Origin: a virus
Length of the DNA stretch: 64,000 bases
Virus record (IMG/VR): IMGVR_UViG_3300037087_000181
Location: 1-64,000 of that record
Direction: 5' to 3' (one strand)
In this document: positions 1-58,349 of the stretch, one piece after another
Layout of the letters: each line of letters opens with the position of its first letter
Position numbering within the stretch: position 1 is the stretch's first letter
The notes under the pieces: model-generated
Told to the model about the DNA's origin: nothing
What the model saw: the letters and a program-made list of their open reading frames with translations, nothing else
Databases searched by the model: none
Program-made: the position numbers and the translations under genes

Positions 1-360
1 AATGTTAGCCCCAATGTTAGCCTCAATGTTAGCCCGAAGGTTATCCACAATGTTAGCCCCAATGTTAGCCACAATGTTAGCCCCAATGTTAGCCCCAATG
101 TTAGCCCGAATGTTAGCCCGAATGTTATCCCCAATGTTAGCCACAATGTTATCCACAATGTTATCCACAATGTTAGCCCGAATGTTAGCCCCAATGTTAG
201 CCCGAAGGTTATCCACAATGTTAGCCCGAATGTTAGCCCGAATGTTATCCACAATGTTATCCACAATGTTATCCACAATGTTAGCCCGAATGTTAGCCCG
301 AATGTTAGCCCCAATGTTAGCCTCAATGTTAGCCCGAAGGTTAGCCCGAATGTTATCCCC
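1..360. repeat. 12-bp tandem repeat, 30 units (aatgttagccNN / aatgttatccac)
   Basis: Directly visible; coding on minus strand. Confidence 0.95.
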
Positions 361-12648: not shown

Positions 12649-13143
12649 TTATTTTTCGTCAGGGAAATTTAAGTTGGCAAATTCACCAAATAATTCTTTG
12701 GCTTTCTTATCATAGGAACGAGCAGCATCTTCGGCAGTATAATAGACACCCAAACAAATTTCTTTATAGTTAACATGGATTCTGGCACGAAACTTCTTTG
12801 TCCTTCTCTCCCCCTGTTTAAGACTAACACCATTATAAGGGATTTCTCCTCTAATTGCAGAATTCTTGTGATTATCTGTTTCTGTACAGTTCCTTAGATT
12901 TGATTTTTGATTATTCAATCCATTATGATCAATATGGTCAACTTCAAGTTCAGGAGGCGTGTGCATTATTTCTCTGTGCATATTAATCATTTTCCTACTT
13001 CTGTTTTCAGAAATAGTGCCCCATCTTTGAGCATAATAATGACCATTGTTACCATGAGCGAACCATTTCCATTTGCTTAACCAAACAAAGTCATCATCGT
13101 CTACCAATGCAACTTGCCCCCTTGTTAATTGAATCTCTTTCAT
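12649..13143 (-). CDS. HNH endonuclease with AP2 domain
   Basis: VDHIDHNGLNNQKSNLR; LGVYYTAEDAARSYD..LFGEFANLNF; start re-called at MKEIQLT. Confidence 0.9.
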   Translation of the reverse strand: MKEIQLTRGQVALVDDDDFVWLSKWKWFAHGNNGHYYAQRWGTISENRSRKMINMHREIMHTPPELEVDHIDHNGLNNQKSNLRNCTETDNHKNSAIRGEIPYNGVSLKQGERRTKKFRARIHVNYKEICLGVYYTAEDAARSYDKKAKELFGEFANLNFPDEK

Positions 13144-13244
13144 CTTGTGTCGTTTTTTGATATGTGTCGAAAAAAATGGAGGAAAGGACTCGACACTCGT
13201 CTGCTTCATCGGGTAGCTATATCCGACTATTCCTCCACAAAGAT
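13144..13244 (-). promoter_or_regulatory. TATCTTTG promoter plus structured 5' leader of HNH-AP2 gene
   Basis: Three-stem junction; loop GTGTCGA complementary to two downstream CGACAC boxes. Confidence 0.6.
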
Positions 13245-13251
13245 AGTAAAT

Positions 13252-13986
13252 TTATTTATTATCTTGCCAGCTAACTGTCCAGTAGTGAATGCCATAACTA
13301 CACTCTTTAATGTACCTTTTAGGATTAGAGATAGCACGCTGAGTATTGGGAAGACAATAAAAAAAGTCAAAAGGAAAGACAACCACTCCCGATGTGTCAG
13401 TATCTATCGTTTTTAAAAAACATTTCGTAAAATGATAGGGGCCTGATCCATGCATAATTTCCATTGCATCATGCCCACGATAGGGTGTATCAAGATCGTC
13501 TATACATGTCTGAATAATAGGATGATTGGGGATGCTTGCAATGATGCCTATATAAAGAACGAATACGTCTCCATATCCAAGACCACAGAAGAACTTAAGA
13601 TTAAGGAGATCATCAAGTGGTCTTATACATTCAAAATCAACATCGATATATACTCCGCCATACTGTTTAAGTATTTCATATCTTAACAAATCACTTTTCA
13701 TTCCTTGGTTGGGACACGCCTCCAAAATACTTCTTTTGGTAATGAAAATATCATTGACATCTTTATCTGTCCAAAGTTTATATTTGTAGTCAGGATTATA
13801 AAACTTCCATGATTGCATGAATTTTTCATATTTTTCAGGCACGTTGCCCCCTAACCAAATTTGGTGTATGATCTTCGGAATATGTTGTTCTGTATCGGTA
13901 GCCTCGGTATAGTTCAAAGCAAACAAATCACTTACTATCTTCCATGTAGGACTATTATCTTCTTCTATCAAGTATTTCATAATCAA
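13252..13986 (-). CDS. GT32 (DXD, OCH1-like) glycosyltransferase
   Basis: IPKIIHQIWLG, KSDLLRYEILKQYGGVYIDVD. Confidence 0.9.
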   Translation of the reverse strand: MIMKYLIEEDNSPTWKIVSDLFALNYTEATDTEQHIPKIIHQIWLGGNVPEKYEKFMQSWKFYNPDYKYKLWTDKDVNDIFITKRSILEACPNQGMKSDLLRYEILKQYGGVYIDVDFECIRPLDDLLNLKFFCGLGYGDVFVLYIGIIASIPNHPIIQTCIDDLDTPYRGHDAMEIMHGSGPYHFTKCFLKTIDTDTSGVVVFPFDFFYCLPNTQRAISNPKRYIKECSYGIHYWTVSWQDNK

Positions 13987-42533: not shown

Positions 42534-43049
42534 ATGAAAAAGACATTCTTTATTATTCTGACAATTATTGTGGTTTTTATATCCACAAGTACGTCAAGTT
42601 GTGACGACAAAAGCAGCAATACTGTTTTAGCACAGAAACAGGAAGCAATTATGCAGGAAGCCAACAGACAGGTTGGTATGCCTAATATCGTAAATTTTAC
42701 ACAAAGGAAACAGTTAAAAATGATTCAAGAACTTTGTGATCAGGAAAATCTCATTTGCTATGCTTATATTGTACCTGAATTAACAGGGAAACCTGTTTTT
42801 CTTGGCAAATGTATAGGATTTGGAATACCATTTTCTACTCAATACACAAATCCCGAAGCATACGTTCGTGTTTATTCTGGGAATTATGTTACACTACCAC
42901 AAGCCGATCCTAATGGTTTATTCATGCCAGCAAGTGCAGAAGGAACATGGCTTATGTTAATTGACCCAAAAACAAATGAACCACATCCTGTATATATTGA
43001 ACCAAGGGTTTTAGTATCTCCGTTTCCATTACCAACCGCAGTAAATTAA
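42534..43049 (+). CDS. phage lipoprotein (moron)
   Basis: Signal plus SSC; QADPNGLFMPASAEGTW; promoter at 42466-42497. Confidence 0.7.
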   Translation: MKKTFFIILTIIVVFISTSTSSCDDKSSNTVLAQKQEAIMQEANRQVGMPNIVNFTQRKQLKMIQELCDQENLICYAYIVPELTGKPVFLGKCIGFGIPFSTQYTNPEAYVRVYSGNYVTLPQADPNGLFMPASAEGTWLMLIDPKTNEPHPVYIEPRVLVSPFPLPTAVN

Positions 43050-43474: not shown

Positions 43475-44146
43475 ATGTGTGATATTCCAACAAAAGTTTG
43501 TTCTAAGTGTAAAATAGAGAAGCCTATTGATTGTTTTCATAAGAAAACAGCCAACAGGGACGGGCATAAGGCGGAATGTAAGGAGTGTATTGCAAAAGAC
43601 GCCACTGTTTTTTATAAAAAAAACAAAGAAAGGGTTAATAAGGTTAAGAAAATATATTATAACGCTCATAAGGAACAGTATTTTAAATATGGGAAAAAAG
43701 AAGGAAAGGTTGAGTATCAAAGGGATTATCGTAAAAGACATAAAGAATCATTAAAGGAATATAGTAGGGAGTATCGTAATAAAAATCGGATTCCCTTGAA
43801 TGCAAAAAGACTTGCCAAGAAAAAAACAAATATTAATTTTATGCTGGCATGTACGCTCCGAAATGAGATATACAATGCTGTTAAAAAAAGCAAAAAGATA
43901 TATAAGATGAAGGAGGTTCTTGGTTGTTCTCTTGATTTCTTAAAACAACACATTGAATCTCAGTTCACAGAGGGTATGACATGGGAAAACCACGGAAGGT
44001 TTGGCTGGCATATTGATCATGTTCTTCCATGTAAGTCGTTTGACTTATCTGACTCAGAACAGCAGAAAAGGTGTTTCAATTGGAGTAATTTACAACCGCT
44101 TTGGTGGTATGACAATATATCTAAAGGTGCAAAGATAGTCGCATGA
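43475..44146 (+). CDS. HNH homing endonuclease
   Basis: KVCSKCK; GMTWENHG..WHIDHVLP..FNWSNLQPLW; paralogue of 37275. Confidence 0.85.
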   Translation: MCDIPTKVCSKCKIEKPIDCFHKKTANRDGHKAECKECIAKDATVFYKKNKERVNKVKKIYYNAHKEQYFKYGKKEGKVEYQRDYRKRHKESLKEYSREYRNKNRIPLNAKRLAKKKTNINFMLACTLRNEIYNAVKKSKKIYKMKEVLGCSLDFLKQHIESQFTEGMTWENHGRFGWHIDHVLPCKSFDLSDSEQQKRCFNWSNLQPLWWYDNISKGAKIVA

Positions 44147-47100
44147 GCAACGTAACGCAGGAAATTTTATTCAATGGGAGTGGCTTAAATACCGATGATA
44201 ATCAGAACTTTATCGCCAACGGGGATTCCCCTTGGAGGTTGAATGTGATGGTTTCAGGAAACGAGGCGGCTGGTATTTTGACGAATATTTTAGGTAATAG
44301 TTTGTCTGTGGATATAACTGACCACAAACTTAGTCTATCACACACCTATACAACTATTGGAAGTTATTATAATCGGCTAACCCGTAAGGTTTATTATTTT
44401 GTATGGTCAACTCCTTATGATAGTGGGGGTGGGGTGTATATTTATGATAATAGACTTTTTGAGTTTGATGAAGACAAGAAGACCCTTGAATTAATTTTTT
44501 TAGATTCTCATAATTATTTTGGTTTGTCCTTAAGTACACCTTTTAAGGATTCTTCGATGCTCGGTGATTGGCTATATTTCAACCCAAGAGTATCAGAACC
44601 AAAGATGATTGATGTGGTTCGTGCCTTCAATTACACAAACTACGTTACATATTCTACGTCATCAATATATGTCTTCGGAGACAAGGTTACATTCTATGGT
44701 GGGTTATTTGTAGCTTTAGCGGGCGTATCAACAGGACAGACACCGATAACTCATCCTGAAAAATGGAACAGGATAGGAGATTCTTATCGAGATAAGTCAG
44801 ACTTAGTTTTTGACAGTGAGTTTGACTACGCTTTCAATGTACTTAAGATGCCACCTGTTATAAGACCAAAGGTGTCTTACGGTAATGATACACACATTCA
44901 GGTAAATAATGTAAGAGGAAAATTATTCAGATTTTCTTATAGGTATAAATACTTCGACAATACATATTCTAAATATTCTGCATTTTCAGACATCACACTA
45001 CCTGAGGAAAGTGAAATTTATAATGGAGAGGTACTCAATAGCACCGTTACTAATAATTACATTAAGATTTCTATCAACGCTCATTCCCCCGCATTGGTTA
45101 AGGAGATAGAGATCGTTGCGCAAGAAACTACTGGTGACTGGAAAAGGGTTAAGATAATAAATAGACAAGAACAGGCAGAACTCACTACCTTTGACATGTC
45201 TTTTAACTTCTATAATAATGAAAGTTATTTAACAGTAACAAACATAGAAGTAGCCACGGTAAGTGATTATGTTCCACAGAGAGCAAACTCTATGGAGATA
45301 ATAAATAAAAACATTCTGACCTATGGTGGGTGCTTAGAAGGGTTTGATAACATACCGAAAGATGAGATAAGGGTTGGACTGACACCCGTGTTGCAAAGTA
45401 TATACTCACCCCCTATAATAGGTGCTACGAGAAGGAATAATATACCTTGGGATATTACTGATGTTGTTGTTCTTTATGATGGCAATCCAATAGAATACGG
45501 GAAAGGAATTGATATAGGCTCTTGGTGGCCCGGAACGGTTGTGGCAGGAGATGTTTATGTTGTCACTATTGATGGAAAGACAAACATCTATACAGTAACC
45601 GCAAATGATGTAGCACATACGAACGTTGCTATGGCTAGTCTGATAGCCTTTTTAAGTGATAATTATAGTACCTATGGCATAAGGATTCAATCCGACCCTA
45701 ATTTAATAGACATATTGTCTCTCTATGGTAATCCGATAGTGGCAGACATCACACAGTCATTGTTTTGTGTAAATGGTGGTGCGAGTAATCTACTCACAAA
45801 GAAAAGTGGATTTAAGACAGGAGCTAACCACCCGTTCTGTATCTTCTATTATGACGATAACCTACGCAGGTGGGATGCACAAGTCTCGAAAGAAAATGTA
45901 CATATCTTCGGTTTAGAGATGCACGGGACAACTGTATATGTTCCCATGCTTAATGAGGTAAGCCCTCCTCCTGATGACACCTCATATAAATGGACTATTG
46001 ATTGGGAAGTTTATCATCAACCCCCAGTAGGCGCAAGATATTGGAGATGGGGTTATGCCGGGAATAGCCTATGTTCAAAAATGGTTCAGTACATAGTATC
46101 TGATGTTACCGATGGTGATCCCGCCACGGATGGAGCCAACCTATGTAAGGTAAATATTACTCCGCTGCAAACGCTTAAGAGTACAATAACGGCAGATTGG
46201 AATCAGTACCCTAATTCAATCATTGATACCTATACATGGAAGACGGGAGATAGGATACGTTTTATAACCAAAAAGGTTGTCTCTGCGGGGTCAGCAGTAC
46301 TTGGGGATATTATTGATGGTGTTTATGAATATGAAATATTAAAGCAATCTGGTGATGATTCTGAATTTATATTTATTCAGGGATTAATTGCATCAAATGG
46401 TATAACGGCAGCCGATATAGGAGAAAATTCATTAGCAGAGATATATTCCCCTCTTGCGACTATTAGTGAGACACAGACGGTATATTATGAGTTTGGCGAT
46501 ATGATGCCTATTCGTGAAGATTCGGCAGGAGTAATGGTACATTATGGGCAGAACGGCATTCATAACCAAGATACAGTACTTTCTCATACTGCAATGGGTA
46601 GTTTTGATAGTGGAGATGTCTATCATATAATGAGGACACCATCAAAGCCTATTGATACTGACAACCCACTCGTGGGGTTCTTTCATGAGTCACAATGGTA
46701 TTCAGATTTTTATGAAAGTACCGATTTTAATAAAGGGAAAATAGGCTTTGAAACTAATTTTGGGCAGAGATTTCTAAATATAGTCAGATACTCACGACCC
46801 TACTTTCAGAACACAGAGATTAATGGGCTATCTACTTTTGAGGAAGACGATGCTAATAACTGGCCGGGTTATAAAGAATATAACGACATCTTTGGGGATA
46901 TTGTGGCTATTTATGAGTTTGGGGACACGCTAAAGGTTTATCAGGAAAGAAAACCATCATCGACACTTGTCGGGAGGCAGGAATGGCTCGGTGCAAATGG
47001 AGAACCAACAGTAGCCGTTAGTGACGTTGTGCTCGGAGCAATAAGATATGATAAATCTAATTATTCGACTATATTTCCCGAATCATTATCAAGAAATAAT

Positions 47101-49023
47101 AACTTCATATATGGGTTTGATATTTATAATGGTGCAGCATGGAGGGACGGGAATAATGGTATATTTCCTATAAGTGGTCGTTATACTACGGAAGATAATA
47201 ATAACGATTACAAGATGCAGACCTATTTCAAACTAAAGGCAAAGGCACTTATGGAATCTGGCATAAGTCATGTTAGCGTGCTTACTGTTTGGGATGAAGA
47301 ATATAAGTTACTTTATGTTATTTTTAAAGATTCAGTTATCCAAGATAATAATGAAACGATAGTTTTTCACGAACCGAGTAATAGGTGGATCACTTTCACG
47401 GAATTTGACCAAACATCCATCAATGGTTTCAACACACCCCTTGAATTTTTTAAAGAGTGTTATATAATAGTTAAGGGATTTGAAAATGGGATAGGGTTTT
47501 CTTTCGATTATGATACAAGATTTGCTCATTTTAATCTCGGAGGAGGACTTGGTACTACGGCACTTACGCTCGTTAACCCGGAAATGTTACCTATTGAGAT
47601 AACAATGCCTACTCCACAAATAAGTTCTTCCCCTTTATTATCTACGATGCCTCTTAACATAGTATTAACACTTCCATTACCAGATATTGGAGTTTCGTGG
47701 GTTCATAATAGTAATCCAGTCATGATATTTGCTGCCGAAGACCACACATCGGATATAGCACAGATCACTTATATGGATATTATAGGAAATGTTCGTGTAT
47801 TCATTGGCGAAATTCCCAATTGGATTACCGTGTGGAACTATTCTGGGAGATATGCTTTCAGTGCGGGTGATGATATTTTTGAGGGAGAGGATATAAGTAT
47901 TTTCCCCAATAGTGTCAATACATCTTTTCAACGCACGGTATCGGTTATTTTTGCCGATTTATTGGGTAATATAAGCACAGTTTCAGTAACGCAGGAAGCA
48001 TCGGTTATTGAACCCTTAGTCGTTATTTCTAAGAATCCACTCGACACCACAGACTTTTTGATATATCCTAATATAACTTCAGGGTCATGTTATGTCGGGG
48101 ATAATACTGTTTCGATTACATTTTCAGTACATAAATCATCTCTTGGAACGGGGATGCCGCTGATTGTTTATTATGTTATAACAAGAGATGGTGTTTATGA
48201 TGAACAAGGTGAGTTATCTGCGAGGGACGGGATACAAACAGCTAAAATTATTTCTTTAAGCAGTAATGCTATTGCCAGTGAGGTAATAATAGTTTACTTA
48301 AGTGGTATTCCGGTAGGTTCTCCAACGGGGATTATGGATGTTAATATAAGTGCGGGTATATTGCCATTGGTTATTACACTACCAACCCCTATTGTTAGCG
48401 TATCATGGATTACGGTTAGTAATGACACCATGAATTGGACGGCATTACAGTATGGTTCGTCCCAAAAAAGAATTTCTATTGTTTCTGTAGTCGGAACATG
48501 GGCAACATTACAGTCATTTCCATCATGGATTACTATTGTCGAAAATAGTGAGGGAAGTATTATCGAAATAGGTGATACAATATCTGATGGAGAAACAATA
48601 GCATTATATCCAAAGAATATAAATACCCTCCCAACGATAATATCAGGTTTTGTTAGCATTATTGATAATATTGGAAATATAAGTACAATACAGGTTACAC
48701 AACAGGCGTCCTTAGTTAATCCAGATGTAAGGGTATGGATGAATCCATCGGATACATCAGGAATCACATTATCTGGTGCATTTGGGACGGCTGCAATCGG
48801 GAGTAAGAATATAAATATTACCTTTACGCCTAATGATCCGTATGTAGGTAATGGAGGGGTATTAAATTTGGAATATCAAATATGGAAGAATACCATACAG
48901 GTAGGTGGTGGAAATTTAATGAATCTTTCAAACAAGAAAGTTAACACAAAACTATTAACAATGTCATCTATAGCAAACGCAGGGGATATAATCACAGTAT
49001 ATTTAAACGAATCAAATTTATAA
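44143..49023 (+). CDS. muzzle/tail stabilisation protein (P22 gp10-like), N-terminal part with BACON/Ig-like extension
   Basis: FRFSYRYKYFD..S..SAFS, LTYGGCLEG, FCIFYYD, NGLSTF, FGDI, IVFHEPSNRWITF. Confidence 0.8.
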   Translation: MSNVTQEILFNGSGLNTDDNQNFIANGDSPWRLNVMVSGNEAAGILTNILGNSLSVDITDHKLSLSHTYTTIGSYYNRLTRKVYYFVWSTPYDSGGGVYIYDNRLFEFDEDKKTLELIFLDSHNYFGLSLSTPFKDSSMLGDWLYFNPRVSEPKMIDVVRAFNYTNYVTYSTSSIYVFGDKVTFYGGLFVALAGVSTGQTPITHPEKWNRIGDSYRDKSDLVFDSEFDYAFNVLKMPPVIRPKVSYGNDTHIQVNNVRGKLFRFSYRYKYFDNTYSKYSAFSDITLPEESEIYNGEVLNSTVTNNYIKISINAHSPALVKEIEIVAQETTGDWKRVKIINRQEQAELTTFDMSFNFYNNESYLTVTNIEVATVSDYVPQRANSMEIINKNILTYGGCLEGFDNIPKDEIRVGLTPVLQSIYSPPIIGATRRNNIPWDITDVVVLYDGNPIEYGKGIDIGSWWPGTVVAGDVYVVTIDGKTNIYTVTANDVAHTNVAMASLIAFLSDNYSTYGIRIQSDPNLIDILSLYGNPIVADITQSLFCVNGGASNLLTKKSGFKTGANHPFCIFYYDDNLRRWDAQVSKENVHIFGLEMHGTTVYVPMLNEVSPPPDDTSYKWTIDWEVYHQPPVGARYWRWGYAGNSLCSKMVQYIVSDVTDGDPATDGANLCKVNITPLQTLKSTITADWNQYPNSIIDTYTWKTGDRIRFITKKVVSAGSAVLGDIIDGVYEYEILKQSGDDSEFIFIQGLIASNGITAADIGENSLAEIYSPLATISETQTVYYEFGDMMPIREDSAGVMVHYGQNGIHNQDTVLSHTAMGSFDSGDVYHIMRTPSKPIDTDNPLVGFFHESQWYSDFYESTDFNKGKIGFETNFGQRFLNIVRYSRPYFQNTEINGLSTFEEDDANNWPGYKEYNDIFGDIVAIYEFGDTLKVYQERKPSSTLVGRQEWLGANGEPTVAVSDVVLGAIRYDKSNYSTIFPESLSRNNNFIYGFDIYNGAAWRDGNNGIFPISGRYTTEDNNNDYKMQTYFKLKAKALMESGISHVSVLTVWDEEYKLLYVIFKDSVIQDNNETIVFHEPSNRWITFTEFDQTSINGFNTPLEFFKECYIIVKGFENGIGFSFDYDTRFAHFNLGGGLGTTALTLVNPEMLPIEITMPTPQISSSPLLSTMPLNIVLTLPLPDIGVSWVHNSNPVMIFAAEDHTSDIAQITYMDIIGNVRVFIGEIPNWITVWNYSGRYAFSAGDDIFEGEDISIFPNSVNTSFQRTVSVIFADLLGNISTVSVTQEASVIEPLVVISKNPLDTTDFLIYPNITSGSCYVGDNTVSITFSVHKSSLGTGMPLIVYYVITRDGVYDEQGELSARDGIQTAKIISLSSNAIASEVIIVYLSGIPVGSPTGIMDVNISAGILPLVITLPTPIVSVSWITVSNDTMNWTALQYGSSQKRISIVSVVGTWATLQSFPSWITIVENSEGSIIEIGDTISDGETIALYPKNINTLPTIISGFVSIIDNIGNISTIQVTQQASLVNPDVRVWMNPSDTSGITLSGAFGTAAIGSKNINITFTPNDPYVGNGGVLNLEYQIWKNTIQVGGGNLMNLSNKKVNTKLLTMSSIANAGDIITVYLNESNL

Positions 49024-49449: not shown

Positions 49450-51315
49450 ATGAATAAGACCAATCAATTCAAGACGTGTTCGTTTTTTATGGCGAAGAAT
49501 GATGTTCTTCACATGCTTATCTTGGATGAGAATGGCACTCCCGTTACTGTTGAATTGATTGGTGATGAGACTACTCCATCCGCTCCCGGTCAGGTTACTG
49601 CTATTGATGCGACAAATATAACCGATTCTGGATTCACGGCAAACTGGTTACTTACAGAGAACGCAGATGGGTATTATTTTAATCTTGCCACAGACCCCGA
49701 CATGACACCCCATATAAGCGGATATGAAAATCTTGATGTGGAAAATGTAAATCATGTTGATATAACAGGACTCACTCCGGGGGTTGTTTATTACTATCAG
49801 GTGAGTGCTTATAACAATATAGGAGAGGGTCTTGAATCTAATATTATTTCTACACTTATTCTTTCGGCTGTATTACTTGAAGACTTAGATGGAAACGAGT
49901 ATCACACTATTGTCATTGGTAATCAGGAATGGATCGTTGAAAATCTTAAGGTAACGCAATATGCCGATACATCAATAATCCCGAATGTTACTATAGATGC
50001 TGATTGGGCAGCATTAACAGCCATAGATAATAAAGATACTTATGGTGGGATATATAACTGGTATGCTGCAACTGATGCAAGAAATATTGCACCCGTAGGT
50101 TGGCACGTACCAACATTTGCAGAGGCAGTAGTATTACAATATGCTATTGGAGCTATTGATGATCAGGAATATGAAGGGCCGGGTTATGATACAACCATAG
50201 GTCAAGTTCTTAGAGAAATAGGCACTACGTATTGGATAACTGACGATGGTACGGATACGAAAGGATTTCATGCCAGAGGATCGGGAAGAAGAAATTATGA
50301 TAGTGGAAATTTTGAGGCAATTAAGGCTTTATTTGTATTTTGGCTTTCAGATGCTGGCCCATTAGGTGCATTACAATCTGTTAGAATTAGTGATGATAAT
50401 ACATATTATATAGAAGAACTCACCGCTGGAGTTGGTCAAGAAGCACAAGGTTATTCAATTCGTCTTATAAAAGATGATTCTACTGATCCGGGAACAGTAA
50501 CAGGTAATGATGGCAAAGTTTACACAACTGTTAAAATTGGTGATCAAGTATGGATGGCAGAGAACAGTGCAGAAACAAAATATCAAAACGGAGACTTAGT
50601 TACAGTAGTGACAGACGATACAACATGGGCAGCAGAGACAAGCGAAGCAATGTGCTATTACGATAATATCGCCTTATCCGATGGGGATGCCTATTGTTGG
50701 TATAATAATGATTTAGCAACTTATAAGGCTATTTATGGGGCGCTGTATAATGACTATGCTGTTTTAAGTGCAAAAGAACTTGTTTATTTTACAAGAAGTG
50801 CAGTACATGAGTTAGGATGGAGGGTAGCTACAAAAACAGATTGGGATGATCTTATCGCCGTTCTTGACGGATTGACAGTGGCGGGAGGACGGCTAAAAGA
50901 AATAGGGACAACACATTGGACTCCCCCTAATACAGGTGCAATAGATTCAGTGGAATTTAAAGCCGTTGGCGGTGGATATAGACAAGAAACGGGTACATTT
51001 GGTGGCATAAGAGATAGTGCTTTCTTTTGGACGTCTACATCAGAAGGTTTGCTATCGGGAGTTAATTTTTATCTCAATTATGATACCCAGGATATAAACC
51101 ATGTAAATACTGTTAAGGGGGCGGGGTATTCAGTTCGCTGCGTAAGAGATATATATACTTCTACTGTTTATGTAATTTACACAGATGGTATAAGTACTTG
51201 GCGTAAGGGAGTAAGAAGTCATGCTTTTGTTCTTGATAAGACAATAACTCCGTTAGGTTTTAGTGGGGTTGAGGATACAGATTGGGTTAATATAAAATCA
51301 GTTAAATTGGACTAA
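49450..51315 (+). CDS. FN3 plus two Fib_succ_major (C-type lectin-like) domain adhesin
   Basis: GFTANW..GLTPGVVYYYQV; DLDGNEY..IGNQEW; GYSVRCVRD. Confidence 0.85.
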   Translation: MNKTNQFKTCSFFMAKNDVLHMLILDENGTPVTVELIGDETTPSAPGQVTAIDATNITDSGFTANWLLTENADGYYFNLATDPDMTPHISGYENLDVENVNHVDITGLTPGVVYYYQVSAYNNIGEGLESNIISTLILSAVLLEDLDGNEYHTIVIGNQEWIVENLKVTQYADTSIIPNVTIDADWAALTAIDNKDTYGGIYNWYAATDARNIAPVGWHVPTFAEAVVLQYAIGAIDDQEYEGPGYDTTIGQVLREIGTTYWITDDGTDTKGFHARGSGRRNYDSGNFEAIKALFVFWLSDAGPLGALQSVRISDDNTYYIEELTAGVGQEAQGYSIRLIKDDSTDPGTVTGNDGKVYTTVKIGDQVWMAENSAETKYQNGDLVTVVTDDTTWAAETSEAMCYYDNIALSDGDAYCWYNNDLATYKAIYGALYNDYAVLSAKELVYFTRSAVHELGWRVATKTDWDDLIAVLDGLTVAGGRLKEIGTTHWTPPNTGAIDSVEFKAVGGGYRQETGTFGGIRDSAFFWTSTSEGLLSGVNFYLNYDTQDINHVNTVKGAGYSVRCVRDIYTSTVYVIYTDGISTWRKGVRSHAFVLDKTITPLGFSGVEDTDWVNIKSVKLD

Positions 51316-51317
51316 TA

Positions 51318-51623
51318 ATGGCAGTTCAATATATTTATTATACCTCAGGGACAATGGTTGAATACACGGATGGTGTGGATGTGTTTAGGGATGGTTCTTT
51401 AGGGGGTTCATACATAGTGGAGGTTCTTGATGGTGCTTCTTGGGATGATTTGGAAAGTATTGATGCCGAGGGTGCAATAGGTATAGATACATTCCGTGAT
51501 GGTGTTCGTGGGGGAGCATACGTTATAGATAAAACACTTACTCCAATAGGATTTGCAGGAATAGAATCATTAGATGATGGGATTACAGGTGATTGGATAA
51601 ATTTACGAATATCAGATATATAA
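51318..51623 (+). CDS. small acidic structural adaptor
   Basis: Repeats the C-terminal module of the upstream gene. Confidence 0.6.
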   Translation: MAVQYIYYTSGTMVEYTDGVDVFRDGSLGGSYIVEVLDGASWDDLESIDAEGAIGIDTFRDGVRGGAYVIDKTLTPIGFAGIESLDDGITGDWINLRISDI

Positions 51624-54600
51624 TGAAAAAGATTTTAACAATTTTAATTGCACTTGCCATAGCCTTGGTGAGTTGTGCACAACAGACTTTTAATGTAAAT
51701 GTGGTAATTCAAAAGGCCACACCTACATTATCTTTTAATGGAAGTGGAGGGATCATTGACTTTCTTAATGGAAGTGCCCACATAACGCTTACACAGAGTT
51801 TGAATACGTTAACTCTTGCGGGTGGAAACTTATCACTTGGAACAAATAACCTCCTTACAACGGGTTTTATTGGAGTTACGGGGGCAAGAATAACAAAAGG
51901 ATGGTTTATTGATGGAGAGTTCTCTAACATGCCTACTGTTGCGGGAAACTCATTAACATCATATTTCGCTACTTCGGCACAGCTATCGGCAATAACGGCA
52001 ACATCATTGGGGCTTGGAAATGTTAATAATGTTAGTGTTGCGACTATTCTTACAAGTCCTGCACTCACAGGAACCCCAACAGCACCCACGGCAACAGTTG
52101 GTACTAACACCACACAGGTAGCTACAACTGCCTTCGTGTTGGCTAATGGAGGTGGCGGAGGAGGTGCTGGCACATGGGGAAGTATAACAGGAACCCTTTC
52201 TTTACAGTCAGACCTTGAAACCGCACTGAATTTAAAACTTAATACCAATGGGAGTGCTGCAAGTCTGACAAGTTTTCCTACGCTAAACCAAAATACGACA
52301 GGAAGTGCCGCTACGTTAACTACACCAAGGGCAATTTATGGAAATAATTTCAATGGTTCGGTTGCCTTAACACAAATAATCGCATCTACTTATGGCGGAA
52401 CGGGTAACGGATTTACTAAATTTACAGGGGCAACACAAACAGAGAAAACCTACACATTACCTGATGTAAGTACTACTATCTTGACTTCTAATTCTCCAGT
52501 GACGGTAGCACAAGGGGGAACTGGACGAGTAACGTCAACAATTGCATACGGATTATTGGCTGCGGGGACAACGGCAACGGGGGTACAACAGACACTCGCC
52601 ACCGGATCAGGTGGACAGATACTTCGTAGTGGTGGTAGTGGAGCGTTACCTTCATATTCAACAGCAACCTATCCGGCAGTGGCAGGAACAGCACGTAAAA
52701 TGGTGGTTTCTGATGGTACTAATCTTGTCATGTCTACCGAGACTTATGATACACCGGGGGCAGTAGGAAATATGCTTATGTCTGATGGTACAAATCAGGT
52801 TAGCACCACGCCCGTTGACATCGCAACTGTTATGTCTCAATATTATATTGATGCTACAAGTTCTATACAGGGACAGTTAAATGCACTTTCCACACGAATT
52901 ACGGCACTCGAAGGTAATACTCCTTCATATCCAAATTATTATGTTGCAAATGCCGGATCAGATGCAGCAGATGGGTTAACCCCTGCAACTGCATGGCAGA
53001 CAATTTCAAAAATAAATGGATTAACTATATTATCGGGAACAGGGATTAATTTTAACAAAGGGGATACGTGGCATGAGATATTGACAGTTCCTTCTTCTGG
53101 TATTTCAGGCAACCCCATTGTATTTGGTTCTTACGGTACAGGGAATAAGCCTATCATTGATGGATCAGATATTGTTTCTACATGGACGGCTGATAATAGT
53201 GATGTAGAAACAGGAGGGACATTTGTTTCAGGATTAGAGACTGAGACAAGTGCTTTTACAACTGAATGGACAACAAAGACAGTAGCAAATAGTAATACTA
53301 TGACTGTTTCTTCAACTGTAAAAAATCATGGTACTAATTCTGCACTAATTACTTTCAATGGTACTGGACAGGAAGCGTATGCTTATAAGGATCTTTCTAA
53401 CCAAACAGAAATGAATTTTAGGTTTTATTTCTATTTGGCTTCAGATTTTGCAATGCACGCAAATGGTAGTTCTATTGATCTTGGTTTGATGTATGATACT
53501 GGTAATGGTTGGTTATTTGGTGTGGTTTTGGAAGCAGATGCGGGGAGTACAACATCCTTTCATTTGAAAGGAGATAGGATAAAACCAACAGATGCCATTG
53601 TTTACACTGGAGCTAATGGTTCGATTTCAAGAGGCGCTTGGCATTATGTTGAAATAGAGTTCGATAGAGGAACTACAAATGGAGGATGGCAGATGTGGTT
53701 GGATGGTAATTCTGTCGGAAGTGATTTTACATTAAATACAATTATATATAATCCAAACAGGGTTTATATAGGAGATGCTGGTGAATTGGGTTATCCTGCA
53801 AGTACAGCAAAAATATATTTTGATGATATAAAGGTAAGTACTTCTGTTATCGGGGCATTCCCGGCGGGAGTGGCTAATGTTTATGATGCTACAATAGCAG
53901 CAACAACAGTTCAGGTTTTCAGAGACGGGTTAAGAGCAACCAAGGGATCATCAAAAGCGGCACTTAATGATCATGAGTGGTTTTGCAGTGGTACAACATT
54001 ATCATATAGAGATGATTCAGGAACACCACAAGGGGCAGGATATGTTATTGCAGCCTCGGTAAGAAATAGTTGTATTGAAGTTTCAAAAGGATTTGCACAA
54101 ACAGATTATATTACTATTGATGGTCTGGATATAAGAAATTCAAATTTGAATGGAATATTTTTCCCTGCAACTTCAACTGGTGCGATTATAAAAAACTGTG
54201 ATGTGAAGTATAATTATAATGATGGTATTCGTTCATCGGCAGGCGAAGTAGCATCTAATGTATTAGTAACAACTTGTAATTTAAGTTGGAATGGAGGTGG
54301 TGGTGTTGATATAGTTACTCCAAGTCATAACTGGACGATTAGTTATAATAATGTTTTTAGAAACTGTCAATACAATGATAGTTATCAAAATCACAATTGG
54401 AATGCAGGAATACACACATGGTGCGAGGATGCTACAGTTAAATCAATCCAGATAATTCACAATACCATTTATTCTAATGGGAAATTACCTAATAATACTT
54501 ATGTAAGTATATCATCTGGCAGGGGAATACATTTTGATACTGTTGAAGAAACAAATTATACGGATGGATCATTTGTCGGATATAATTTTATTTATGATAA

Positions 54601-55192
54601 TAATCAAGTGGGAATACTTCTTGAACACGCTAGTTATCATACTGTTGCTTACAATCTTGTTTATAATAATATTGGAGCATACGGTATAGCAGTTTCAGAT
54701 TATTCTACTCTTTCAGAAGCAAGCTATAATAAAGTTTATAACAATGTATGTTATGGTAATCTTACAGGTATTGTCATACAGGGCACAAGTAGTTTAACTG
54801 CAAACAGATGTAGGGGGAACATTGTAAAGAATAATATTTCTTTCGGTAATTCAAATAATCAATTAGGATGTTATTATGGTGGTGAGAATGATGGTACGAT
54901 GGGTAGTGGCAACGTGTACCAGAATAACGCATTGGGCGTAGAAGGCACTGGTTTTATTCAGTGGGGTAGCGGTGTGAATAAAAACACTTATGCTGCTTGG
55001 GCTTCGGCCTATGGTAGTTCTACAAATTCAATTCAAACCGATCCTTTACTTGTAAATTCCACAAGTTTAAATTTTCAGTTACAAACAGGATCACCCTGTA
55101 TAAATGCAGGAGTAAATGTGGGATTAACAACCGATTTCTTAGGAAATCCTATAATTGGACTTCCCGATATTGGAGCATACGAAAAACAATAA
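51623..55192 (+). CDS. fibre-like protein with signal peptide, shaft repeats and beta-helix head
   Basis: MKKILTILIALAIALVSC; SPALTGTPTAPT, WGSITGTL, VAQGGTG; pectin-lyase-like head ending PDIGAYE. Confidence 0.8.
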   Translation: MKKILTILIALAIALVSCAQQTFNVNVVIQKATPTLSFNGSGGIIDFLNGSAHITLTQSLNTLTLAGGNLSLGTNNLLTTGFIGVTGARITKGWFIDGEFSNMPTVAGNSLTSYFATSAQLSAITATSLGLGNVNNVSVATILTSPALTGTPTAPTATVGTNTTQVATTAFVLANGGGGGGAGTWGSITGTLSLQSDLETALNLKLNTNGSAASLTSFPTLNQNTTGSAATLTTPRAIYGNNFNGSVALTQIIASTYGGTGNGFTKFTGATQTEKTYTLPDVSTTILTSNSPVTVAQGGTGRVTSTIAYGLLAAGTTATGVQQTLATGSGGQILRSGGSGALPSYSTATYPAVAGTARKMVVSDGTNLVMSTETYDTPGAVGNMLMSDGTNQVSTTPVDIATVMSQYYIDATSSIQGQLNALSTRITALEGNTPSYPNYYVANAGSDAADGLTPATAWQTISKINGLTILSGTGINFNKGDTWHEILTVPSSGISGNPIVFGSYGTGNKPIIDGSDIVSTWTADNSDVETGGTFVSGLETETSAFTTEWTTKTVANSNTMTVSSTVKNHGTNSALITFNGTGQEAYAYKDLSNQTEMNFRFYFYLASDFAMHANGSSIDLGLMYDTGNGWLFGVVLEADAGSTTSFHLKGDRIKPTDAIVYTGANGSISRGAWHYVEIEFDRGTTNGGWQMWLDGNSVGSDFTLNTIIYNPNRVYIGDAGELGYPASTAKIYFDDIKVSTSVIGAFPAGVANVYDATIAATTVQVFRDGLRATKGSSKAALNDHEWFCSGTTLSYRDDSGTPQGAGYVIAASVRNSCIEVSKGFAQTDYITIDGLDIRNSNLNGIFFPATSTGAIIKNCDVKYNYNDGIRSSAGEVASNVLVTTCNLSWNGGGGVDIVTPSHNWTISYNNVFRNCQYNDSYQNHNWNAGIHTWCEDATVKSIQIIHNTIYSNGKLPNNTYVSISSGRGIHFDTVEETNYTDGSFVGYNFIYDNNQVGILLEHASYHTVAYNLVYNNIGAYGIAVSDYSTLSEASYNKVYNNVCYGNLTGIVIQGTSSLTANRCRGNIVKNNISFGNSNNQLGCYYGGENDGTMGSGNVYQNNALGVEGTGFIQWGSGVNKNTYAAWASAYGSSTNSIQTDPLLVNSTSLNFQLQTGSPCINAGVNVGLTTDFLGNPIIGLPDIGAYEKQ

Positions 55193-55204
55193 AATAATAT
55201 AACA

Positions 55205-57502
55205 GTGAAAAAACTATTTTTTCTTTTAACATTTTTAATAGTCACCCTGTCACTTAAGTCAACGACTTATTACATTGATCCGGCGGGCAATAACAGTCAT
55301 ACAGGATTGATTAGTTCTCCGTGGCTAACTTTAGCCTATGCCTGTGCACATACAACATCTGGCGATATTATTCATGTCAATGCCGGGACATTTACCGAGA
55401 CAGTTCAATGTACTAAGGCTGTCGGTGTAAGTATCGAGGGTGTTGGAGTGACTTCTCATATAATAAGTCAGGTTGTCTTTACACGTTCTGGCGACTTAAC
55501 AGGAGCTGCCATCATGTGTTCCAGCGCATCAGAAGGTACAAATGACAATAGTCATATAAGCGGGATTTGGTTAGATGGTAATTACTATGCAGGCAGCACG
55601 GGATCGTCTTCAGCAACAGGGAATGACGGTATTTTTGTACAAAGAAGAAGTAATGTCAAAATATTTAATTGTACAATATCGGGATTCTATCTTAATGGGA
55701 TTGCACTTCACGGATCAACTATTTATGCACAACCATCAATCTATGCTACAGGAAATGAAATACATGATTGCATAATAACAGATAATGGTAATGAAGATTC
55801 TACATGGGGAGGTGGGGGCAATATTGAGATTGGAGGGCAGGGTGACGGAACGCTTATACATGATAATACAATAAGTTGCATAGGCAGGCAAAATCATGGG
55901 TTAATCAATGGGAATAATCTTTCGGGAGCCTACCATAATGAGGGAGTAAAATTTTATAATAATCTCTGTTATAAGAATGAGCAAGAATCTGTATGGAGTT
56001 TCCATATTGAGATGTGGAATACTGATGGTGGCATGGAAGCATATGGTAATACCTTTAACGGAGGAGATACAGGGATAGATATTGCTGGAGATTGGAGTAC
56101 TAAAGGCAGTTACGCTTATTCATGGTATGTCCACGATAATCTATTTACCGGTAATTATTTAACGAGTCATGAGAAAAAGATTGGTATTGATATCGAAAAC
56201 GGAACACAACAAGATATTTGGATTTATCGTAATCATTTTTATCAGAAACATGCTCCCTTTAACATAACTAATGGTGATGATGCAAGTGTAGTTATACAAA
56301 GGGTTTGGATTGCTTATAATATTATGGAGAGTTGTGGATATGGTGTACCGGGTGGCTATCAGGTAATTAACAATATTCACCTACCAGGTGACATGACTCT
56401 TACAGATTTTTATTTCTGTAATAATGTAATTATAGGCGAAGCTGATGCTTACTATATTGGGTTTGATATTGACAATGCTGGTACAATAACCAATATGTAT
56501 TTTAGAAATAACATAATTGTTAATTTTTTACATTCTTTCGGATGGTTGTATGTGGCTAATGCAGGAAGTATGAATGGATTGTATGTTAATAATAATATTC
56601 AATATAATAATTCAAATAGTAATGATCCCTTATTAACAGGCAATTCTGTTAGTAATTATTCATATACGAATGCCACTAAGACAGCACCACCATTTGTTTC
56701 ATCGACTGATTTTCATCTTACGGCTGCAAGAAATGGAGTTGCCGTATCATTTCCTATTACATGGGCTGATTATGATGGCAATACATTAGCGAGTCCTCCC
56801 GAAATGGGTGTTTATGAATATGGGACAATAAGTGCACCCACCGTTACAACAACCGCAGCATCAAATATAGCACAAACAACTACAACCAGCGGGGGAAACG
56901 TAACAGCCGATGGCGGTGCAACGGTTACGGCAAGAGGGGTTTGTTGGGGAACGTCGGCTAATCCTATTACTTCTGGTAGTCATACTTCAGATGGAACTGG
57001 TACGGGAACATTCGCCAGTTCAATTATAGGTTTAACGGCTTATACTATATATCATGTGCGTGCTTATGCAACAAATAGTCAGGGTATTTCTTATGGGTCT
57101 GATGTGCAGTTTACAACATCTGCCGCAATAACCATACCCGTAGTTACCACGACAGCAATAACAAGTATAACAATTACTACGGCAACAAGTGGAGGAACGA
57201 TTTCATCGGATGGAGGATCAACGGTTACGGCAAAGGGTGTTTGCTGGGGGATATCGACTAACCCCACCACATCTGGCAATCATACTTCAGATATTAGTGG
57301 TACCAGTACTTTTACAAGTGCCATAACGGGATTAACGGCAGGAACGGTTTATCATGTAAGAGCATATGCCTCTAACGGTGTAGGGACAGCCTATGGATCA
57401 GACGTACGGTTTACAAGTGCGGTAGTGACGTCTATATCTCCCGTAACACATAATGGAGTTCCTGTGATATCGGGGGGTAAGATATTAATTATAACAAGAT
57501 GA
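55205..57502 (+). CDS. secreted-type right-handed beta-helix protein with two FN3-like repeats
   Basis: Signal peptide; YYIDPAG..PWLTL..GDIIHVNAGTF; 2x PTVTT..GVCWG..YHVRAYA. Confidence 0.8.
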   Translation: MKKLFFLLTFLIVTLSLKSTTYYIDPAGNNSHTGLISSPWLTLAYACAHTTSGDIIHVNAGTFTETVQCTKAVGVSIEGVGVTSHIISQVVFTRSGDLTGAAIMCSSASEGTNDNSHISGIWLDGNYYAGSTGSSSATGNDGIFVQRRSNVKIFNCTISGFYLNGIALHGSTIYAQPSIYATGNEIHDCIITDNGNEDSTWGGGGNIEIGGQGDGTLIHDNTISCIGRQNHGLINGNNLSGAYHNEGVKFYNNLCYKNEQESVWSFHIEMWNTDGGMEAYGNTFNGGDTGIDIAGDWSTKGSYAYSWYVHDNLFTGNYLTSHEKKIGIDIENGTQQDIWIYRNHFYQKHAPFNITNGDDASVVIQRVWIAYNIMESCGYGVPGGYQVINNIHLPGDMTLTDFYFCNNVIIGEADAYYIGFDIDNAGTITNMYFRNNIIVNFLHSFGWLYVANAGSMNGLYVNNNIQYNNSNSNDPLLTGNSVSNYSYTNATKTAPPFVSSTDFHLTAARNGVAVSFPITWADYDGNTLASPPEMGVYEYGTISAPTVTTTAASNIAQTTTTSGGNVTADGGATVTARGVCWGTSANPITSGSHTSDGTGTGTFASSIIGLTAYTIYHVRAYATNSQGISYGSDVQFTTSAAITIPVVTTTAITSITITTATSGGTISSDGGSTVTAKGVCWGISTNPTTSGNHTSDISGTSTFTSAITGLTAGTVYHVRAYASNGVGTAYGSDVRFTSAVVTSISPVTHNGVPVISGGKILIITR

Positions 57503-57756
57503 AGATAATTTTATTTATATTATTTTCATTAGGAGTTTTTGCTCCACAGAGTGGTAGAGCGTGGATCATGTACCCTAATCCCGCTAAAGATCATGTAACA
57601 ATAGAGATGACAGATGGGGTAATGCCTAAGTATGTGAAATTCTATGATATAAATGGGAAAGTGGTTTTAAGGGTGGCAACAGAGGGAAGATTAATTATTA
57701 GAATAAATTTTCATCTCATGTCGGGTAGGTATATTGTAAATCTGGAGGATAACTAA
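57499..57756 (+). CDS. signal peptide plus stand-alone T9SS type-A sorting domain
   Basis: MYPNPAKDHVTIE..VKFYDINGKVV..SGRYIV. Confidence 0.75.
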   Translation: MKIILFILFSLGVFAPQSGRAWIMYPNPAKDHVTIEMTDGVMPKYVKFYDINGKVVLRVATEGRLIIRINFHLMSGRYIVNLEDN

Positions 57757-58349
57757 TGTCACGTCAAATTGATCTCATAGCTTCAAGCAATGGTGAACAC
57801 TACGTTTTATTTGGATTTAATGCCAATGAGTTAAGTTCCTTTAGTATAATGTTTTGGATCACACATTATGGTGTAAGAGCTTTGGATTGGGTACAGGCAT
57901 TAAGCCTCGGATTTTGTTCTTTTCTAGGTGGCGATATATGGGTTCATAATTCCACGGAAGTGCCAAGGAATAATTTATTCGGACAACAGAGAAATTCAGA
58001 GGTCGGAATAGTCGCTAATCAAAATGCAAATGAGATAAAGATTCTTGATGCTATCGGGATACATAGTGATGGGGCTTGGTCGGTGGATTCTATTACCATC
58101 CCAAAAACGCTTAATCAGCCCAATGGTATGTATAGCATGATCCCTAAAGAACGATTTAAGAAAAGAGAAGGCGTTTGGCAAGCAGAATTTTTGAGAAATA
58201 TGAAAACAACTTCAGGAGCGGCATTGGCAATAGAAGCCATTAAGGGAGAAGTCCTTCGTGGATATAGTGCATTTTTGGTGTTAAAGAATACGGATAATAC
58301 TGAGGTTAAGCTTTTTAAGGTTAATCTTGGAATGACCAAATCGAGGTAA
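57756..58349 (+). CDS. C-terminal part of muzzle/stabilisation protein
   Basis: FCSFLGGDIWVHNS..RNNLFG, FKKREGVWQAEFLR, GEVLRGY..VKLFKV. Confidence 0.7.
   Translation: MSRQIDLIASSNGEHYVLFGFNANELSSFSIMFWITHYGVRALDWVQALSLGFCSFLGGDIWVHNSTEVPRNNLFGQQRNSEVGIVANQNANEIKILDAIGIHSDGAWSVDSITIPKTLNQPNGMYSMIPKERFKKREGVWQAEFLRNMKTTSGAALAIEAIKGEVLRGYSAFLVLKNTDNTEVKLFKVNLGMTKSR

Follow-up and report, generated by a model that had tools for sequence, protein, structure and literature searches.

Targeting to Bacteroidota's type IX secretion system (T9SS) is thought to need an intact C-terminal domain (CTD) in cis. Type-A CTD cargo proteins, such as RgpB, RemA, RemZ, and NucA (PF18962/TIGR04183), combine a Sec signal peptide (SP) with a CTD that carries YPNP and GxY motifs in an immunoglobulin (Ig)-like beta-sandwich. 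Minimal or short T9SS signals have also been described, including the three-strand short CTDs of Prevotella intermedia (PMC11969387) and the signal of HBP35, which maps to the 22 residues at the C terminus of the protein according to the citations of that work in PMC11285876 and PMC11969387. T9SS cargo is furthermore encoded by phages, namely, the Cryophage (Bellas et al. 2020, PMC7468147) and the crAss-BACON cluster 2 phages (de Jonge et al. 2019, PMC6949934), and small stand-alone proteins with little beyond a CTD-like sandwich are found in Bacteroidota (SP-plus-CTD proteins of 110 to 124 amino acids [aa] in ESM Atlas clusters; DUF3244 proteins 4g5a, 3sd2, and 3d33). Precedents thus exist for T9SS CTDs as such, for T9SS cargo borne by phages, and for small CTD proteins that stand alone. 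Here, we describe a cassette of three consecutive open reading frames (ORFs A, B, and C) in IMG/VR virus record IMGVR_UViG_3300037087_000181, the last of which encodes an 85-aa protein consisting of an SP-like segment and a T9SS CTD body that stops before the final strand. The stretch analyzed (the window) comprises the first 64 kb of this 85,256-bp record, which is complete according to the CheckV estimate of 100%.

ORF A (51623-55192), ORF B (55205-57502), and ORF C (57499-57756) are translationally coupled and all encode SP-like N termini. Export signals were judged by a simple n-region/h-region rule (charge plus hydrophobic core), which flags these three ORFs and approximately eight other plausible genes of the phage. 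As the first-pass annotation had it, the N termini of three consecutive genes here resemble signal peptides, being positive by this rule for all three and conserved in their relatives. The main features are as follows.

51623..55192, plus strand: ORF A, 1189 aa (from ATG), with an SP-like N terminus (MKKILTILIALAIALVSCA/QQ, the slash marking the predicted cleavage site), a fiber-like shaft, a right-handed beta-helix, and a choice-of-anchor-Q C terminus
55205..57502, plus strand: ORF B, 765 aa, starting with GTG rather than ATG, with an SP-like N terminus, a beta-helix of approximately 520 aa, two fn3-like repeats, and a short tail, without a CTD
57452..57499, plus strand: tail at the C terminus of ORF B (NGVPVISGGKILIITR), which may donate the strand missing from ORF C
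57499..57756, plus strand: ORF C, 85 aa, an SP-like segment and a CTD body with no passenger domain on the same chain
57499..57567, plus strand: residues 1 to 23 of ORF C, an SP-like or signal-anchor segment (MKIILFILFSLGVFAPQSGRAWI)
57568..57756, plus strand: residues 24 to 85 of ORF C, a type-A T9SS CTD body with strands 1 to 6, ending after the GxY (motif D) strand

ORF C shares with type-A CTD cargo the YPNP and GxY motifs and the Ig-like beta-sandwich, and its N terminus resembles a Sec SP, but it lacks a passenger on the same chain and the beta7 lysine strand, and the tag body is a separate gene downstream of a cargo-like gene. The Cryophage and the crAss-BACON phages are likewise Bacteroidota phages with CTD-bearing glycan-active proteins near structural genes, and the Cryophage tail fiber has shaft motifs in common with ORF A; however, their CTDs are complete and covalently attached to the cargo, whereas the CTD here is truncated and stands alone. 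The view that a phage-borne CTD is unusual needs qualification: phage-borne T9SS cargo has been published (PMC7468147, PMC6949934), and Bacteroidota have small stand-alone SP-plus-CTD proteins of their own. A further phage-borne T9SS cargo was seen in IMGVR_UViG_3300025715_000014 (locus L177; 1465-2103, minus strand; a 118-kb record, approximately 50% complete), where a complete type-A CTD belongs to a 212-aa protein with an SP and, in its N-terminal part, a small passenger region. The ESM Atlas and DUF3244 proteins are longer than ORF C, bacterial, and without known linkage to a tail-bearing upstream gene, and a stand-alone small CTD of 105 aa retrieved in this study (L067) is complete. The minimal and short T9SS signals show that essential targeting information resides in the last two strands, which corresponds to the position of the ORF B tail, but these signals sit on one chain and none has been described as completed by a second protein. 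We found no description in the literature of a conserved mini-protein consisting of an SP and a CTD minus beta7 and coupled to a cargo with a beta7-like end.

ORF C scores above both curated CTD cutoffs, with 38.4 bits against PF18962 (cutoff, 27) and 30.7 bits against TIGR04183 (cutoff, 23), and a scan of the genome gave 39.7 bits, in agreement with its first-pass description as carrying a type-A T9SS CTD. The Pfam match covers model positions 1 to 64 of 75, and the ORF C family profile aligns with residues 2 to 63 of the 75-residue NucA CTD. The AlphaFold2 (AF2) model of ORF C, built with the family alignment, is a six-strand sandwich with a predicted local distance difference test (pLDDT) score of approximately 90 for residues 21 to 85. 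The structures that match this model best are CTDs solved inside the SprA-PorV translocon, namely, those of RemA, NucA, and RemZ, and the last residue of the model aligns to residue 1104 of RemZ, ahead of Lys1110, which is a near-invariant and functionally important CTD lysine (PMC10994853). The sandwich of ORF C is thus one short of seven strands, the absent one being beta7, which bears the conserved lysine (motif E / C-t.). Pfam coverage, the NucA alignment, the AF2 strands, and the RemZ alignment confirm the earlier suggestion that the last KxxxK strand is missing.

The truncation is shared by a family of proteins. An exhaustive profile-free search of 1.84 billion representatives retrieved, as the best matches of ORF C, at least 12 proteins of 84 to 93 aa that align end to end with identities of 36% to 75%, all of which end at the same turn, within a few residues past the GxYIV strand. 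Of 202 CTD matches (160 metagenome plus genome loci), all have at least 8 (mostly 12 to 16) further residues except one family member, encoded by contig L001. This was the one family member obtained in a scan of JGI metagenomes, in which the other matches checked were ordinary complete CTDs. CTD relatives of ORF C stem from Bacteroidota genomes, and the scan of GTDB genomes found ordinary CTDs only, with no close ORF C family member in cellular genomes. Scanning IMG/VR with ORF C, alignment A2, P0134, or P0132 retrieved no member of the family, and tblastn of ORF C, P0125, and P0137 against GenBank phages gave no match. As judged from these alignments, ORF C is a member of a conserved, precisely truncated CTD family and not a decaying fragment, the latter being a reading that the first-pass annotation had kept in view and that the length, identity range, and fixed end of the family speak against.

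An SP-like start, M(K/R/I) plus a hydrophobic core, is present in 12 of 13 aligned ORF C relatives, the exception being P0133, which begins with MYPNP. The gene call of the record for ORF C starts at Met24 (62 aa, P0122). The conserved N terminus of the relatives supports the 85-aa form, and automatic annotation starting at Met24 would miss the probable export of ORF C.

Residues 20 to 540 of ORF B form a right-handed beta-helix in the structural model (pLDDT above 90), which in structure comparison resembles Pel9A/pectate lyases, PL6 lyases, GH136 enzymes, and phage tailspikes. Among GenBank phages, only the fn3 repeats of ORF B had matches, and a PDB sequence search was empty. A near-length search gave 154 relatives of ORF B, and the counts given here refer to the 120 relatives listed, 87 of which have an SP-like N terminus. 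A complete CTD is terminal in 54 of the 120, at the place where ORF B has its tail (e.g., P0002, which is 63% identical over the helix). In ORF B and some relatives (including P0006 and P0012), a tail of 10 to 30 aa that ends in a K-hydrophobic strand instead follows one to three fn3-like repeats. ORF B is accordingly best described, from its sequence relatives and its model, as a predicted T9SS-cargo-type beta-helix protein of carbohydrate-enzyme-like character (lyase-, hydrolase-, or tailspike-like).

ORF B ends with GGKILIITR, having a short K-I-L-I-I strand instead of a CTD. The layout of the gene pair was compared in two loci, those of this phage and of L001. The latter is a JGI contig of 2,137 bp, and its mini-CTD (P0134) has 36% identity with ORF C. 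Upstream of the L001 mini-CTD lies an open frame with the end ...YYVRAYATNSTGTAYGLNVKFTTSFGWFSMNADVKSENKILIVQ, which comprises an ORF B-type fn3-like domain and then a short tail; the terminus reads SENKILIVQ, and the stop codon overlaps the mini-CTD start as ATGA, as at the ORF B/ORF C junction. The K-I-L-I codons differ synonymously between ORF B and L001. Downstream of the mini-CTD, the two loci differ, with a gene for a crassvirus muzzle C-terminal domain (muzzle-C) here and a caspase-family peptidase gene (Peptidase_C14, 411-1292) in L001, so the conserved linkage is with the upstream gene. In addition, L001 has a homologue of the ORF at 77205 of this phage and is therefore probably derived from a related phage. 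Within the last nine residues, ILI(I/V) occurs in 2 of 1743 background C termini, and these are exactly ORF B and the L001 protein, both of which precede mini-CTD genes. The closest unsplit relative of the mini-CTD is P0132, which has an SP, the same fn3-like domain, and a full CTD with the last strand NIILIIN, while canonical beta7 tails read like xxKKLIVK. Ends of the (K/R)-hydrophobic type make up 13% of CTD tails versus 1.1% of the background.

ORFs B and C overlap as ATGA, and ORF C and the next gene are joined as TAATG, confirming that ORF C overlaps both of its neighbors, as first reported. Many peat metagenome runs contain the identical sequence. The ORF B/ORF C/muzzle-C junctions are spanned by contigs of other peat runs with zero differences, and ORF C has zero variants in these contigs; a one-off assembly error at the B/C junction is thus excluded. 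The cassette ends at the following gene.

57756..58349, plus strand: muzzle-C gene, 197 aa, crassvirus muzzle C-terminal domain PF25729 (47.8 bits)

The product of this gene aligns weakly to residues 1199 to 1294 of crAss001 gp44 and shows that the operon is structural and late. Upstream of the cassette, a 1626-aa ORF (44143-49023) matches phrog_14478, a PHROG virion structural protein, and BLASTP of this ORF against crAss001 gp44 gave no link. The record has features of Crassvirales, namely, the muzzle domain and crass-type virion genes. Because of the PF25729 match, the weak gp44 alignment, the PHROG virion match, and the occurrence in peat runs, its source is, on sequence criteria, a distant crAss-like phage from peat. 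Megablast of the locus against GenBank phages gave no DNA-level match.

Published C-terminal losses indicate how ORF C might behave alone. RgpB lacking two C-terminal residues and PorU with its last six residues replaced are trapped in the periplasm (PMC11285876), and the beta7 strand and its lysine are required for translocation (PMC11285876, PMC10994853). Since such losses trap cargo in the periplasm, ORF C alone should, by analogy, reach the periplasm yet not be transported. In donor-strand complementation (chaperone-usher pili) and strand exchange (Bacteroidota type V pili), a partner strand completes an Ig-like fold in the periplasm. From the domain content, truncation, family conservation, synteny, and coupling of ORFs B and C, we infer that a comparable completion may take place here, although the pilins belong to another fold family and no usher, chaperone, or polymer is involved in the cassette.

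A peat crAss-like phage would have captured, in this cassette, exported and glycan-active proteins of Bacteroidota style, and ORFs B and C would together be one split T9SS cargo, comprising a Sec-exported enzyme, whose relatives in cells bear a covalent type-A CTD, and a separately exported six-strand CTD body. Translational coupling would provide the two proteins in about equal amounts, and each would use Sec to cross the inner membrane. Once both are in the periplasm, the beta-sandwich of ORF C may be completed by the tail of ORF B through strand complementation, and the rebuilt tag could then carry ORF B through the host T9SS, either onto the cell surface or into the medium. At that site, ORF B might act on surface glycans, destroying the receptor or capsule of the infected cell and of its debris, or else stripping neighboring cells. 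ORF A would be a Sec-exported fiber-plus-beta-helix protein of the same class without a T9SS tag. Our tentative proposal, with somewhat less than an even chance of being right, is that B and C form a split T9SS signal that becomes complete in the periplasm through strand complementation, a reading that the first-pass annotation had not considered. The broader notion of a two-polypeptide T9SS signal, in which phages use a detachable tag for CTD-less enzymes, without covalent processing, and the cargo keeps only the lysine-bearing last strand, is possible but rather doubtful.

Several observations weigh against the split signal. Among 1743 C termini ranked by a profile built from canonical beta7 tails, that of ORF B comes only 276th, without a significant score, and that of L001 79th, and the ORF B tail, like the fn3 repeats, is modeled at low confidence (pLDDT below 50). 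B-like proteins of phages without any CTD also end in short K-hydrophobic strands, so the tail may have another role; a mini-CTD hidden Markov model had no match in 15 viral loci that contain B-like genes, nor in those IMG/VR loci where relatives of ORF A occur, and PF18962 was not found in three complete phages with B-like genes. The layout was read in two loci only, which may share descent, and it is not easy to see how such a split would have evolved. Furthermore, ORF C may stay membrane anchored rather than being soluble. In P0121, P0123, P0124, and P0126, the N-terminal 23 residues (MKI.LFILF..G.FAPQS) are 61% to 74% identical, while the domain is 32% to 45% identical in three of them, and a Pro directly follows the sole good -1 Ala of ORF C (FAPQS). 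Both features suggest a signal anchor, and an N terminus that outconserves its domain, as in this subgroup, is unusual for a signal peptide.

Other explanations of ORF C were considered, among them the T9SS decoy that the first-pass annotation had set beside an export of fibers. An exported, cargo-less ORF C could act as a decoy that binds the SprA/PorV pocket or free PorV and blocks the host T9SS, and the resulting decrease in displayed receptor proteins could lead to superinfection exclusion or shield progeny from debris. An SP and a CTD body without a passenger would be a transport-incompetent design of this kind, conserved in its family. Contacts of CTDs with the translocon are plastic and for the most part hydrophobic, with approximately 40% of the CTD surface buried, and the missing lysine seems to matter at a later step (PMC10994853), while C-terminally truncated cargo stays in the periplasm (PMC11285876). 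However, ORF C is a late gene coupled within a structural operon, which implies 1:1 dosing with ORF B and not early or high expression, and it is linked to an upstream cargo-like gene, not to a T9SS-related or exclusion gene. Translocon binding by a six-strand CTD would also be hypothetical, and we regard the decoy as unlikely.

A rather improbable explanation is that ORF C serves as a periplasmic or membrane partner, being a folding or holding factor or an inner-membrane anchor until lysis, with an Ig-like fold and no role in T9SS. The strong conservation of the N-terminal 23 residues in one subgroup and the Pro of FAPQS, which suggests an uncleaved anchor, would fit such a partner, as would the conserved coupling to ORF B and the occurrence of stand-alone CTD-like small proteins (DUF3244) in Bacteroides. 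It leaves unaccounted for that the fold-determining CTD motifs (YPNP and the GxY strand) are fully kept, with scores above the curated cutoffs, and that precisely the transport-critical strand has been removed, which looks like more than coincidence.

The third explanation concerns all three proteins and depends on their N termini. In ORF A, the phage-fiber-like shaft extends over approximately residues 20 to 440, followed by matches to PF13229 (beta-helix, residues 826 to 972) and NF041518 (choice-of-anchor-Q, residues 1148 to 1188). Segments of the shaft are 60% to 80% identical to hundreds of fiber proteins, including "GDSL lipase and tail fiber" of Cryophage ML09; as the first-pass annotation had recognized, these motifs are common to many phage tail fibers, and by homology the shaft is a genuine phage-fiber shaft. 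In tblastn, ORF A had no match among GenBank phages, and its PDB sequence search was empty. Its relatives P0185, P0187, P0188, and P0194 keep MK, a hydrophobic stretch, and (C/S)AQQ, followed by a conserved mature N terminus. Because the Cys varies (it is Ser in P0194) while Ala-Gln is constant, the signal appears to fit signal peptidase I and the Bacteroidetes Q-rule for signal peptides (PMC5837995) better than a lipobox, and the earlier label "lipobox-like" is doubtful. Q-rule signal peptides are also known from Porphyromonas phages (PMC10367356). SP-like N termini, often with an A/Q site, occur in 36 of 120 ORF A relatives and in 9 of 31 full-length IMG/VR relatives, while the crAss001 fibers gp22 to gp26 have none, and exported fiber-like proteins therefore look like a recurrent, little-discussed trait of Bacteroidota phages. 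The conservation seen among relatives indicates that the SP-like N termini of ORFs A, B, and C are conserved features and not chance.

In 15 IMG/VR loci (L081 to L095), B-like phage proteins either have a Bacteroidota-type SP or start with MATYYI/MATFYI exactly at the predicted cleavage site, and these two forms suggest that the SP is kept or dropped by use. Several of these B-like genes directly precede holin- or lysis-like genes, the usual position of tailspikes. In L092, a gene at 12782-13567 is caspase-like by eye (...VVMMDSCFSGTG...) and lies close to the lysis-like genes of that phage.

ORFs A, B, and C could be virion parts, i.e., fibers, spikes, and an Ig-like adaptor assembled in the cytoplasm, with hydrophobic N termini unused for export; in a variant of this explanation, the CTD mimic might even serve as a receptor-binding module, docking onto PorV at its extracellular loops. 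The cassette does lie in the tail module, between a large muzzle-region protein and the gene for the muzzle C-terminal domain, ORF A has a phage-fiber shaft, and B-like proteins without an SP (MATYYI...) occur at tailspike positions in other phages. However, instead of the cytoplasmic virion-attachment N terminus expected of a tail fiber or tailspike, ORFs A and B begin with conserved SP-like segments with Bacteroidota-type A/Q sites, which are absent from the crAss001 fibers, and SP-less variants that start exactly at the predicted cleavage site argue that the SP matters where it is kept. A virion role of this kind for the cassette is quite improbable. A function of the hydrophobic N termini as hub-docking peptides was likewise considered and rejected, the crAss001 fibers being without them.

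Finally, it is highly improbable that ORF C is the decayed CTD of a captured host gene or is joined to ORF B by a -1 frameshift: CTDs are present in ORF B relatives and ORF C lies in the -1 frame overlapping the ORF B stop, but the family length and ends are fixed down to 36% identity, a B-C fusion would bury a hydrophobic segment between cargo and tag, and the junction is identical in contigs of other peat runs, so that a decaying remnant and a frameshift fusion are largely excluded. The fusion was also rejected on the sequence around the overlap, which contains no slippery heptamer and in which the frame of ORF C opens no earlier than 57481.

Other parts of the record gave additional observations. 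The muzzle C-terminal domain has a 197-aa ORF to itself, which lies 8.7 kb downstream of the one for the 1626-aa virion protein; the cassette of exported proteins separates the two, and the muzzle gene may be split. Immediately upstream of ORF A, a 101-aa ORF (51318-51623) contains two copies of the motif FRDG.(L/R)GG.Y(I/V)(V/I).., the second of which extends as ...DKTLTPIGFAGIE..W.N. The upstream 621-aa fn3 plus FISUMP protein (window 49450-51623 region) ends with the same motif, WRKGVRSHAFVLDKTITPLGFSGVEDTDWVNIKSV, and the 101-aa ORF is a repeat of the C-terminal module of this neighbor. Many further SP, lipoprotein, or transmembrane (TM) proteins are encoded by the phage (42534-43387 and, beyond the window, 71082-73325 and 76916-78651). 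The product at 42534 is a lipoprotein with C-DDK after the lipobox, that at 71082 is a second SP beta-helix protein of 747 aa, and SP proteins are also encoded at 77205 and 77941; the small TM proteins may be lysis genes. Both ends of the record (window 1-30 and record 85227-85256) consist of the 11-bp tandem repeat AATGTTAGCC(C/T)C..., so the linear record was probably cut within an array of such repeats, and a circular or a terminally redundant genome is possible.

The mini-CTD family and the look-alike strand on the adjoining cargo allow a direct test of whether a T9SS signal works in trans. If true, a split tag would be an undescribed route for sending a protein through the T9SS, and a trans-acting signal would inform what the translocon reads and would be useful for engineering secretion in Bacteroidota. 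The mini-CTD family also poses the question of whether phages block the T9SS with a dead tag. The cassette adds to the evidence that Bacteroidota phages export many fiber- or spike-like glycan enzymes instead of, or besides, mounting them on the virion, and such exported fiber-like proteins change the reading of "tail fiber" annotations in Bacteroidota phages.

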